The notes under the pieces: generated by a model
What the model was told of the DNA's origin: nothing
The model's input: the letters and a program-made list of their open reading frames with translations, nothing else
Databases searched by the model: none
Shown: positions 1,666 through 3,156 of the stretch, in pieces
Numbering within the stretch: the first letter of the stretch is position 1
Layout: each line of letters opens with the position of its first letter
From: Deltaproteobacteria bacterium
Lineage (GTDB): Bacteria; UBA10199; 2-02-FULL-44-16; JAAZCA01
DNA: 52,848 nt
Assembly (NCBI GenBank): GCA_018645265.1
Contig: JABGOS010000079.1
Location: forward strand, 11,924-64,771
Direction of reading: 5' to 3'
Translations under genes and position numbers: made by a program

Positions 1666-1738
1666 GGGCGCTTAGCTCAGCTGGAAGAGCATCGCCTTTA
1701 CACGGCGGGGGTCACAGGTTCGAGCCCTGTAGCGCCCA
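1666..1738 (+). tRNA. tRNA-Val(TAC)
   Basis: GGGCGCT/AGCGCCC acceptor stem, AGCTCAG D-arm, anticodon loop TTTACAC, GGTTCGAGCC T-arm; CCA not encoded. Confidence 0.96.
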
Positions 1739-1817
1739 CAAAATAGTTGGAAAAGGGCTTGATCTTAGGTAGCTTAAGCCTTATATCCAGCCATCAAAAT
1801 TTGGGAGTGAGTCCAGC

Positions 1818-1896
1818 GGGGCCGTAGTTCAGTTGGTTAGAACGCCTGCCTGTCACGCAGGAGGCCGTCCCGCCAGTTGGGCGGGAAGTCTCGTCG
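1818..1896 (+). pseudogene. Pseudo-tRNA-Asp: T-arm segment replaced by a palindrome, 3' acceptor strand truncated
   Basis: 1818-1867 identical to the first 50 nt of the tRNA-Asp at 1931; CGAGTTCG replaced by TCCCGCCAGTTGGGCGGGA; AGTCTCGTCG resumes, GCCCCG absent. Confidence 0.9.
1868..1886. repeat. REP-like GC-rich palindrome TCCCGCC-AGTTG-GGCGGGA
   Basis: Perfect 7-bp inverted repeat with 5-nt loop inside the pseudo-tRNA. Confidence 0.85.
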
Positions 1897-1930
1897 ATGG
1901 ATGTTTGAAAATTTAGTTTAGCAGTTCAGC

Positions 1931-2004
1931 GGGGCCGTAGTTCAGTTGGTTAGAACGCCTGCCTGTCACGCAGGAGGCCGCGAGTTCGAGTCTCGTCGGC
2001 CCCG
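1931..2004 (+). tRNA. tRNA-Asp(GTC)
   Basis: GGGGCCG/CGGCCCC acceptor stem, CCTGC-CTGTCAC-GCAGG anticodon arm, GCGAG-TTCGAGT-CTCGT T-arm. Confidence 0.96.
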
Positions 2005-2031
2005 CTGAATTGCCGAGCTATCCATTCTGAG

Positions 2032-2310
2032 ATGTCAAAATATTATACCTACATTATCTATAGTGAAAGACTCGACAAATTCTATACGGGTTCCACGACA
2101 AGTCTTAAATGGCGTCTTGAGCGACACAATCAGGGGTGGTCACGTTCGACTAAAGGCGGTATACCCTGGAAAGTTGTTTACAGTGAGACATTTAGCAATA
2201 AGCCCGATGCAATACTGAGGGAGCTATATATCAAGAAGCGTAAAAGCAGAGAATTTATTAAAAGGCTAATATCTCAAAGGGAAAATCAACTAATCCATTG
2301 CGAGGGGTAA
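2032..2310 (+). CDS. Small stand-alone GIY-YIG nuclease (UPF0213/SLX1-like)
   Basis: YTYIIYS...FYTGST...RLERHN...STK..PW.VVYSE.F....A..RE..IK signature. Confidence 0.9.
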   Translation: MSKYYTYIIYSERLDKFYTGSTTSLKWRLERHNQGWSRSTKGGIPWKVVYSETFSNKPDAILRELYIKKRKSREFIKRLISQRENQLIHCEG

Positions 2311-3156
2311 ATGTCAGATCTATCCATTATTGAGGCAGTTGTTCTAGGTGCCCTTCAGGGTGCGACGGAATTTCTACCGGTTTCCAGTTCTGGTCATCTC
2401 GTAATCGCACAGGATCTTTTGGGCGTTCAGCTTGAAGGCGCGAGCCTTCTCGCTTTCGATGTTTGTCTTCACTTTGGAACGCTTGCCGCAGTAATTGCGG
2501 TTTTCTGGCGGGATATAATTCAAATCGTATTTGGTTTTTTTGGAAAGCGCTACGGAAGTTTCGCATCGGCCGACGTTCAATCGCCGTCGGAGTCTAGAAA
2601 GCTCGGTTGGATGTTGATCCTTGGAACTATCCCAGCTGTTATAGCCGTATTGTTGTTTGGCGACTTCTTCGAATCTTTGGTTTCAGATCCGTTGGCAGCG
2701 GCTTTTATGCTCCTGGTTACAGGAACCATTCTGTGGCTTACGCGTTTTTCAAAGGTGAGTAGAACGAATTCCGGACTCGGTTGGTTGAAAACTATTGTGA
2801 TAGGATGTGCACAGGCCGCAGCGATTGTTCCTGGTATATCACGTTCAGGTTCTACTATATCGGCGGGACTCTTCTTCGGAATTGATAGGTCGCTCGCCGC
2901 GAAATTTTCATTCCTGCTCGCTGTTCCCGCTATTCTAGGTGCTACTGTTTTACAGTTGGGTGAACTGTCGGCACTCTCAAGTGACATACTTTTATCTGTA
3001 GCATTAGGAACTTTGGTCGCTGCTATAGTGGGTTTTATATGTATAAAGTGGTTGCTCGCACTAATAAAAAGAGGACGTTTTTCCATCTTTGCATATTATT
3101 GCTGGGCGGCTGGACTGGCCACTATTGTTTACAAACTCTTCATTCATAACTCTTAA
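2311..3156 (+). CDS. uppP: Undecaprenyl-diphosphate phosphatase
   Basis: QGATEFLPVSSSGHL and PGISRSGSTI motifs; polytopic membrane protein. Confidence 0.96.
   Translation: MSDLSIIEAVVLGALQGATEFLPVSSSGHLVIAQDLLGVQLEGASLLAFDVCLHFGTLAAVIAVFWRDIIQIVFGFFGKRYGSFASADVQSPSESRKLGWMLILGTIPAVIAVLLFGDFFESLVSDPLAAAFMLLVTGTILWLTRFSKVSRTNSGLGWLKTIVIGCAQAAAIVPGISRSGSTISAGLFFGIDRSLAAKFSFLLAVPAILGATVLQLGELSALSSDILLSVALGTLVAAIVGFICIKWLLALIKRGRFSIFAYYCWAAGLATIVYKLFIHNS

Follow-up and report, generated by a model that had tools for sequence, protein, structure and literature searches.

Why does a gene for a GIY-YIG nuclease of only 92 amino acids lie beside a duplicated tRNA-Asp gene, and why does one of the two tRNA copies carry a hairpin in place of part of its T arm? 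The question is raised by a locus near the left end of a stretch of 52,848 nucleotides (nt) of deltaproteobacterial DNA (assembly GCA_018645265.1, contig JABGOS010000079.1, positions 11,924 to 64,771 of the forward strand), referred to below as the window. The host is a marine bacterium whose genome comprises 2.24 Mb in 161 contigs; G, L and C numbers denote genomes, locus sequences and contigs, the window's own contig being C152. Our answer starts from the anatomy of the locus, the status of the nuclease gene as an insert, the recurrence of tRNA genes and hairpins beside its homologues and a junction that is identical in three genomes. By analogy with a recently described family, we favour on balance the view that the enzyme is an Ssn-like single-strand nuclease with a cognate hairpin, and that nicking would have driven the replacement of a tRNA arm, local duplications and spread into tRNA sequence.

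A repeat search of the window revealed a 58-nt direct repeat (1810–1867 and 1923–1980) whose copies are 98% identical and spaced 113 nt apart. A preliminary description of the sequence had pointed out this tRNA-Asp duplication and its 113-nt period; it took the repeat to include 4 upstream nt (CAGC), and in this it fell short, as the repeat begins 8 nt 5′ of the tRNA (leaders AGTCCAGC and AGTTCAGC). The second copy is an intact tRNA-Asp(GTC) gene, recognized by both ARAGORN and Rfam (73.4 bits), and is the sole tRNA-Asp among the 39 tRNA genes found in the genome by ARAGORN. The first copy follows tRNA-Asp from position 1 to position 49 (1818–1867), where the hairpin TCCCGCC-AGTTG-GGCGGGA (1868–1886) takes the place of eight T-arm nucleotides (positions 50–57, CGAGTTCG); tRNA sequence then resumes for positions 58–67 (AGTCTCGTCG, equal to 1989–1998 of the intact copy) before diverging, just as the earlier reading of the letters had it. 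Because its 3′ acceptor strand is missing, this copy, which also lacks the T arm, cannot be a tRNA; Rfam still scores it as one (37.3 bits), and ARAGORN does not call it. Folded as single-stranded DNA (ssDNA), the region 1856–1900 reaches −11.1 kcal/mol (z −2.84), and the pattern TCCCGCC-N3-7-GGCGGGA occurs once in the window as against 0 times in 100 shuffles. An older and larger duplication, for which the two leaders were compared, was rejected: the likeness of the spacers before copy 1 and before copy 2 (1897–1922) is not significant, 393 of 2000 shuffles giving an equal score.

The nuclease open reading frame (ORF) starts 26 nt past the end of the intact tRNA, and its stop codon abuts the start codon of uppP at 2311. 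Since a scan from tRNA-Val to uppP turned up neither promoter-like nor terminator-like sites, this stretch is likely one transcription unit; an expression look-up listed no RNA run among the public runs matching the locus. The leader of the intact tRNA-Asp (1914–1937) is complementary to its trailer (1997–2020) over 24 nt at 83%, lengthening the acceptor stem, and a relative, G010, has a comparable extension of 9 nt.

Comparison of 41 related genomes, including the window's own, showed that the order tRNA-Val, tRNA-Asp, uppP, ubiA is recurrent. The nuclease gene is an insert, because tRNA-Asp lies 22 (G004), 45 (G009), 23 (G014) and 6 nt (G015) from uppP in four of these relatives, as against 305 nt in the window; these are the empty loci that the preliminary description had proposed to look for. 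Among the DNA matches listed in the other 40 genomes none covers the nuclease ORF (four matches lie outside the list). A 19-nt segment just past the tRNA (2008–2026) is 79% identical to the start of uppP (2310–2328), a score equalled by 9 of 2000 shuffles, and this likeness, which is suggestive only, may mark the boundaries of the insert. The motif ATCCATT was considered as a cassette end and rejected, as it is not common to the other loci. The earlier observation that no integrase or transposase is nearby was borne out: C152 has no match to Phage_integrase (PF00589), found in the genome only on C104, C75, C11 and C5, and none to the Y1 transposase family (PF01797), whose three genome matches are on C39, C81 and C104. 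Over the next 15 kb downstream, the ORFs of the window are those of housekeeping genes.

The same replacement is found beside the two closest homologues of the nuclease, L074 (60% identical; an unassigned metagenome contig) and L031 (59%; a metagenome-assembled genome (MAG) of Bacteroidota). In L031, an intact tRNA-Asp is followed by the nuclease gene and then by a tRNA-Asp remnant in which TCCCGAT-TA-ATCGGGA stands in place of CGAGTTCG. L074 carries an intact tRNA-Asp together with three copies of a 37-nt module, GCAGGAGGTCG / TCCCGATCTATCGGGA / AGTCCCGTC(G), one before the nuclease gene and two after it. Alignment of the five modules (one from the window, one from L031 and three from L074) gave identical junctions in all, after tRNA position 49 and before position 58, and the flanks fit each genome's own tRNA-Asp variant (GGCCG...AGTCTCG in the window, GGTCG...AGTCCCG in L074). 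Because the junctions are identical yet the flanks are host-specific, the sequences suggest either that three unrelated genomes underwent the same replacement, each in its local tRNA-Asp, or that the flanks have been kept matched by gene conversion.

The association extends to other homologues and other tRNAs. In a non-redundant set of 25 homologue loci, a tRNA is found no farther than 200 nt away at 15, and a perfect TCCCG..CGGGA hairpin no farther than 350 nt away at 11; the density of these hairpins is 1.15 per kb within 350 nt of a homologue ORF as against 0.07 per kb farther away (about 16-fold). A tRNA lies at most 108 nt away in 10 of 14 genome loci, 8 of which also hold partial copies of that tRNA. 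Thus tRNA genes, partial tRNA copies and TCCCG..CGGGA hairpins all proved to be strongly associated with the homologues, whose flanks the preliminary description had suggested inspecting for tRNA fragments and hairpins. The arm-replaced copies at other loci derive from tRNA-Met, tRNA-Ala and tRNA-Asp. It is the anticodon arm that the hairpin replaces in tRNA-Met (L032, L033) and tRNA-Ala (L038), and also in L039 and L088; part of the anticodon stem and the variable loop are replaced in L036, and the T loop in L037 and L043. The hairpin-bearing copies of L033 stand upstream of the intact tRNA, which is followed by the nuclease, a precedent for the order seen in the window. Within the window's own class, a tRNA lies within 155 nt at 14 of 29 loci, and a mirror layout was observed at 9 of the 13 loci examined: a 5′ stub of the tRNA comes first, then one or two GC hairpins and the nuclease ORF, whose stop codon is abutted by an intact tRNA.

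What kind of enzyme may be at work? The sole Pfam family of the protein is GIY-YIG (residues 3–73, E 2.4e-14), in keeping with the first assignment, and the intact ORF has the conserved Tyr, Tyr, Arg and Glu positions in common with its homologues. The Ssn family (cd10448) consists of small single-domain GIY-YIG proteins, below 150 amino acids in length (Chenal et al. 2025, PMC11893778). According to that article, SsnA of Neisseria meningitidis, a protein of 94 amino acids with catalytic residues Y6, Y17 and E64, binds the NTS hairpin (CGTCATTCCCGCGMAVGCGGGAATCYRG) only as ssDNA and cuts a few bases upstream of it; SRM hairpin repeats flank the ssn gene, in the layout NTS-ssnA-NTS, and are often amplified. 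Residues Y7, Y18 and E64 of the window protein, candidate counterparts of these, are conserved among the 40 homologues listed. Our best reading, which compares the protein with the published description of SsnA and cd10448, is that the window nuclease is Ssn-like. As in the Ssn system so described, a small single-domain GIY-YIG protein (92 amino acids here, 94 in SsnA) is encoded beside a short GC-rich hairpin, the core TCCCG..CGGGA is common to the window and NTS, the modules of L074 lie on both sides of the gene as in NTS-ssnA-NTS, and the hairpin is amplified to dozens in some homologue-bearing genomes. Unlike that system, the window hairpin is single-copy in its genome and lies within a tRNA copy, of which it replaces one arm and which adjoins an intact duplicate of that tRNA. 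Supplementary Data 4 of PMC11893778 flags species of Salinimicrobium, Psychroserpens and Chitinophaga as having SsnA and cd10448 homologues with no SRM enrichment; homologue loci of the present set come from these genera too. The pairing of nuclease and hairpin has been known since 2025, whereas the nesting in tRNA genes, the precise arm replacement and the preserved duplicate are not in the main text of PMC11893778, where the word 'tRNA' occurs 0 times. Literature searches brought up no paper that describes small GIY-YIG genes of bacteria as nested at tRNA genes; the PDF supplements of Chenal et al. 2025, which may bear on hairpin contexts, were outside their scope.

Small GIY-YIG genes are widespread in the window's class, matching at E <= 1e-5 in 67 of 93 genomes, and the best identity to the window protein there is 44% (38% in the same genus). 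In an unrooted tree of 40 proteins, the window protein and L074 form a pair (support 97/79) within a group of 15 sequences (93/95), 10 of which are from Bacteroidota, while the same-genus paralogue is placed elsewhere. Horizontal acquisition of the nuclease is therefore likely on sequence grounds, and short of proven because the tree is unrooted and the protein short. A tblastn search for homologues on plasmids gave no match, and an NCBIfam search with the nuclease gave nothing above cut-off (TIGR01453 scored 14.8 as against 56 bits).

The preliminary description had imagined an analogue of the RAYT–REP systems with a GIY-YIG enzyme, and had itself named a palindrome unique in the genome as an outcome that would speak against the idea. 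Such is essentially the case here: REP-like expansion in this genome was rejected, the exact palindrome being present at two places and TCCC-type perfect hairpins being in no excess (12, as against 7–25 for eleven control cores). Four TCCCG..CGGGA hairpins occur in the 2.24 Mb. The pattern TCCCGAT-N2-6-ATCGGGA, in contrast, has 51, 15, 10, 3 and 2 copies in five homologue-bearing genomes (reversed control pattern, 0), which hold 4, 3, 2, 1 and 1 homologous nuclease genes. In the Bacteroidota MAG G094 (L105–L144) this hairpin forms at least four dispersed repeat families. The flanks of 48 of its sites were read by eye: tRNA-like sequence surrounds 9 of them, about 35 belong to four families with conserved, asymmetric flanks of the kind seen in REP or NTS elements, one example (...CAGCCTG / hairpin / GCAAAGGATA) accounting for 17 copies, and 2 were flagged as terminator-like by script. 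Because the hairpin is multicopy with conserved flanks in homologue-bearing genomes, the REP-like picture largely holds for the nuclease family, with 51 copies and conserved flanks in one genome, and not for this genome.

Taken with these comparisons, the favoured explanation would run as follows. The 92-amino-acid nuclease would recognize the hairpin at 1868–1886 in ssDNA, as an enzyme of the Ssn kind may be expected to bind a specific hairpin and to nick a few bases 5′ of it. Gene and hairpin would together constitute a small, horizontally acquired cassette lodged at tRNA-Asp. Nicking would promote the exchange of an arm for the hairpin in one tRNA copy, local duplications and spread to tRNA genes. 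The hairpin, standing in place of eight T-arm bases, would disable one copy of tRNA-Asp, and the intact second copy would supply the tRNA and keep the host viable; the nuclease gene, situated between the intact tRNA and uppP, is probably transcribed with the tRNA operon. A further-reaching proposal, which we put forward only tentatively and would not expect to hold, is that Ssn-type nuclease and hairpin are the two halves of an undescribed class of minimal selfish elements, for which the structure of tRNA genes would make them a target. The own stem-loop of a single-stranded tRNA gene (T or anticodon arm) would be swapped for the hairpin of the element and an intact duplicate kept, which would allow entry into near-universal tRNA sequences across phyla; the NTS- and REP-like families would then represent secondary spread from tRNA footholds.

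Several observations weigh against the Ssn-like nicking explanation. In a search of PDB sequences, the sole solved relatives of the protein were UPF0213 proteins (1zg2 and 1ywl). The hairpin is not amplified in the 2.24-Mb genome, where TCCCGCC-N3-7-GGCGGGA is present at two places, and the second copy (on C75) is followed by a T run and is terminator-like; a T run also follows the same-stem hairpin at this locus in G010, which could be a terminator. The window hairpin does not fit the degenerate SRM pattern as published (PMC11893778); GTCWY is missing from its 5′ flank. Hairpins at the homologue loci fail it too, the pattern having three matches in 215 kb of loci, and it is not enriched in the genome (9 matches as against 6–13 in 10 shuffles), where only C16:2277–2304 is a true hairpin. 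The order in the window is pseudo-tRNA, intact tRNA, nuclease, so that the intact tRNA separates hairpin and gene; in the closest homologues the hairpin copy follows the gene (L031), or modules directly flank it with the intact tRNA further upstream (L074). Finally, contigs of 4 public runs, which drop rare variants, contain no form without the cassette or the pseudo-tRNA. Among metagenome contigs searched for near-identical relatives that might represent cassette-free alleles, the best was only 60% identical.

Some of these points would be equally understandable if nuclease gene, hairpin and half tRNA were inert leftovers at a recombination-prone tRNA locus, with the nuclease domesticated or idle and no movement at present. 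The single copy of the hairpin and the lack of variants in public runs would fit such a fossil, as would the state of the locus in nuclease-free relatives. In G010 (L008 301–364), of the same family, the gap between tRNA-Asp and uppP contains 23 nt from the 3′ part of tRNA-Asp and then TCCCGCC-GTAG-GCGGGA-TTT, with the same stem as the window hairpin and no nuclease gene. In G001 (L007 = C40 1884–2043, L028 = C38 1–60), of the same genus, uppP has no nuclease gene 5′ of it but is preceded, at a distance of about 110 nt, by GGCGGGAGTCT, the right half of the hairpin with its flank; the pair of tRNA-Val and tRNA-Asp seems to be inverted with respect to uppP, an order that G017 also shows, and the contigs of G001 break within both tRNAs. 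Because G010 and G001 carry same-stem remnants without a nuclease gene, the hairpin may be older at this locus than the gene, and a terminator origin for their stem is possible. Nevertheless, we consider the fossil explanation unlikely, if still worth keeping in mind. The ORF is intact, with its Tyr, Tyr, Arg and Glu positions conserved, and the closest relatives of the protein are in another phylum or unassigned, not in its own class. Moreover, over its 5′ 58 nt the pseudo-tRNA has kept 98% identity to the live copy, next to spacers that show no relationship to each other, which argues for a recent event or for ongoing gene conversion.

Coincidence would account for the locus if an ordinary terminator or stem-loop had been caught in a tandem duplication and the nuclease had inserted by the tRNA independently. 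The terminator-like T runs of the same-stem, different-loop hairpins on C75 and in G010 accord with this, as does the absence of the exact SRM pattern. The window hairpin itself, however, has no T run after it and is not listed in the terminator scan; the same two junctions are found again, in unrelated genomes, next to the two closest homologues, and TCCCG..CGGGA hairpins are some 16 times denser near homologous ORFs. We regard a chance association as improbable on these grounds. Still harder to sustain is the notion that the half tRNA with its hairpin is a functional RNA, transcribed as part of the operon and serving as a decoy, as a processing signal or in the regulation of tRNA-Asp or uppP. 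It does sit inside what appears to be a single transcription unit, and its tRNA part has been kept identical to the live copy; yet it is not a tRNA, SsnA is inactive on RNA as described in PMC11893778, and the replacement of different arms of different tRNAs at homologue loci leaves no common RNA architecture. That the metagenome assembler created the duplication, as the 161 contigs of the genome and the lack of any single public contig spanning the whole 54-nt repeat might suggest, can be dismissed: the duplication is not an assembly artefact, because Logan contigs from two studies reproduce the two different left flanks of the repeat copies and the two different sequences that follow these copies on the right, as well as the tRNA–nuclease–uppP stretch, with 0 differences (X1, 1709–1852; X2, 1737–1843, 1860–1956 from hairpin into second copy, and 1952–2359 from tRNA through nuclease to uppP), which also answers the early worry about misassembly.

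How does the locus compare with other systems that bring enzymes, palindromes and tRNA genes together? Phage T4 encodes SegB, a free-standing GIY-YIG homing endonuclease, in its tRNA gene cluster (PMC2330249). There too, a GIY-YIG gene is inserted among tRNA genes, is present or absent between related genomes and plausibly spreads via DNA cuts near its own insertion site; presence and absence at an otherwise conserved locus, a trait of homing endonucleases, is also found here, with empty sites in G004, G009, G014 and G015. Seg proteins, however, exceed 200 amino acids, have separate DNA-binding modules and cut double-stranded DNA, whereas the window protein is a bare catalytic domain, is accompanied by a hairpin and by a tRNA duplicate with a swapped arm, and is encoded on a bacterial chromosome. 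REP/BIME–RAYT systems (IS200/IS605-type Y1) likewise join a small enzyme gene to a short palindromic repeat that is recognized as a single-strand hairpin and is able to multiply across the genome. Here the enzyme is GIY-YIG and not an HUH Y1 transposase, no Y1 gene lies beside the palindrome, the repeat has not expanded in the genome at hand, and it is tRNA arms that the hairpins replace. That a GIY-YIG enzyme could be paired with a hairpin repeat in RAYT–REP fashion is in general terms already published, as Ssn/NTS (PMC11893778). Integrase islands at tRNA genes (attL/attR, with a repeat of the 3′ tRNA end) also mark their tRNA target by a partial tRNA duplicate; in contrast to these, the present insert has no recombinase in or near it, its partial copy, which lies upstream, corresponds to the 5′ part of the tRNA, and its size is only about 0.3–0.5 kb.

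The features of the locus are collected in Table 1.

Table 1. Coordinates (window positions) of the features at the tRNA-Asp/nuclease locus
Feature	Position	Strand	Evidence or remark
tRNA-Val(TAC)	1666..1739	+	ARAGORN; Rfam 64.8 bits; conserved neighbour 5′ of tRNA-Asp, same Val–Asp order in relatives
Upstream repeat copy, 5′ part of pseudo-tRNA (8-nt leader and tRNA-Asp positions 1–49)	1810..1867	+	98% identical to 1923–1980
Hairpin TCCCGCC-AGTTG-GGCGGGA, proposed SRM/NTS-type recognition hairpin of the nuclease	1868..1886	+	Replaces CGAGTTCG
tRNA-Asp positions 58–67 (AGTCTCGTCG), right flank of hairpin module	1887..1896	+	Same extent in module 1 of L074
Unique spacer between pseudo-tRNA and second leader	1897..1922	+	Shuffle test against spacer before copy 1
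Intact tRNA-Asp(GTC)	1931..2005	+	ARAGORN, Rfam; 100% identical to tRNA-Asp of G009 and G010
Degenerate copy of first uppP codons, possible left boundary repeat of insert	2008..2026	+	79% identical to 2310–2328
Gene for 92-amino-acid single-domain GIY-YIG nuclease, Ssn-like	2032..2310	+	Pfam PF01541, E 2.4e-14
uppP (BacA), native downstream neighbour	2311..3156	+	Pfam BacA, E 1.1e-80

A few further arrangements were encountered in the same genome and at the corresponding locus of relatives. The window's genome has a second small GIY-YIG gene on C24 (7523–7819; L005 1501–1797), 31% identical to the first, whose ORF continues into the 5′ end of tRNA-His just where the contig stops; C16 (1–82; L029) opens with the same tRNA-His, and the contig break may reflect a repeat at this place. 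The 3′ end of tRNA-His with a trailer of about 60 nt is duplicated 2.1 kb downstream of tRNA-His (C16:2160–2304 region, L029), a 581-amino-acid ORF lies between tRNA-His and this duplicate, and about 40 nt past the latter is a near-canonical NTS (C16:2277–2304, TGTCATTCCCGCGAAAGCGGGAATCCAG). Also in this genome, a tyrosine integrase gene (C11:7888–8648; PF00589, E 1.3e-31) and tRNA-Met are about 170 nt apart, which is an ordinary arrangement unrelated to the hairpin/nuclease locus. Among relatives, G013 (L025 863–890), of the same order, has a canonical NTS/SRM hairpin in the spacer between tRNA-Val and tRNA-Asp. In G033 (L022 1521–1788), of the same class, a 5′ partial tRNA-Asp broken at the variable loop is followed by a GC-rich, hairpin-filled insert of about 90 nt, and 195 nt downstream stands an intact tRNA-Asp; the window query gave no nuclease homologue at L022. 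G026 (L010 471–1256, minus strand) has an endonuclease of a different kind at the same tRNA pair, a 261-amino-acid LAGLIDADG ORF (PF14528, E 3.9e-12) between tRNA-Asp and tRNA-Val.

Ssn nucleases were described as hairpin-specific cutters of ssDNA only in 2025 (PMC11893778). The locus analysed here and its relatives tie one branch of small GIY-YIG genes to tRNA genes. Single arms of duplicated tRNA copies are precisely replaced, at the same nucleotides in unrelated genomes and with flanks that fit the local tRNA, and such a replacement would offer a concrete, testable target site and product of the enzyme's action. It also accounts for a class of partial-tRNA calls in genome annotation. These observations suggest that Ssn–hairpin pairs are, or began as, tiny mobile elements that land in conserved tRNA sequence.

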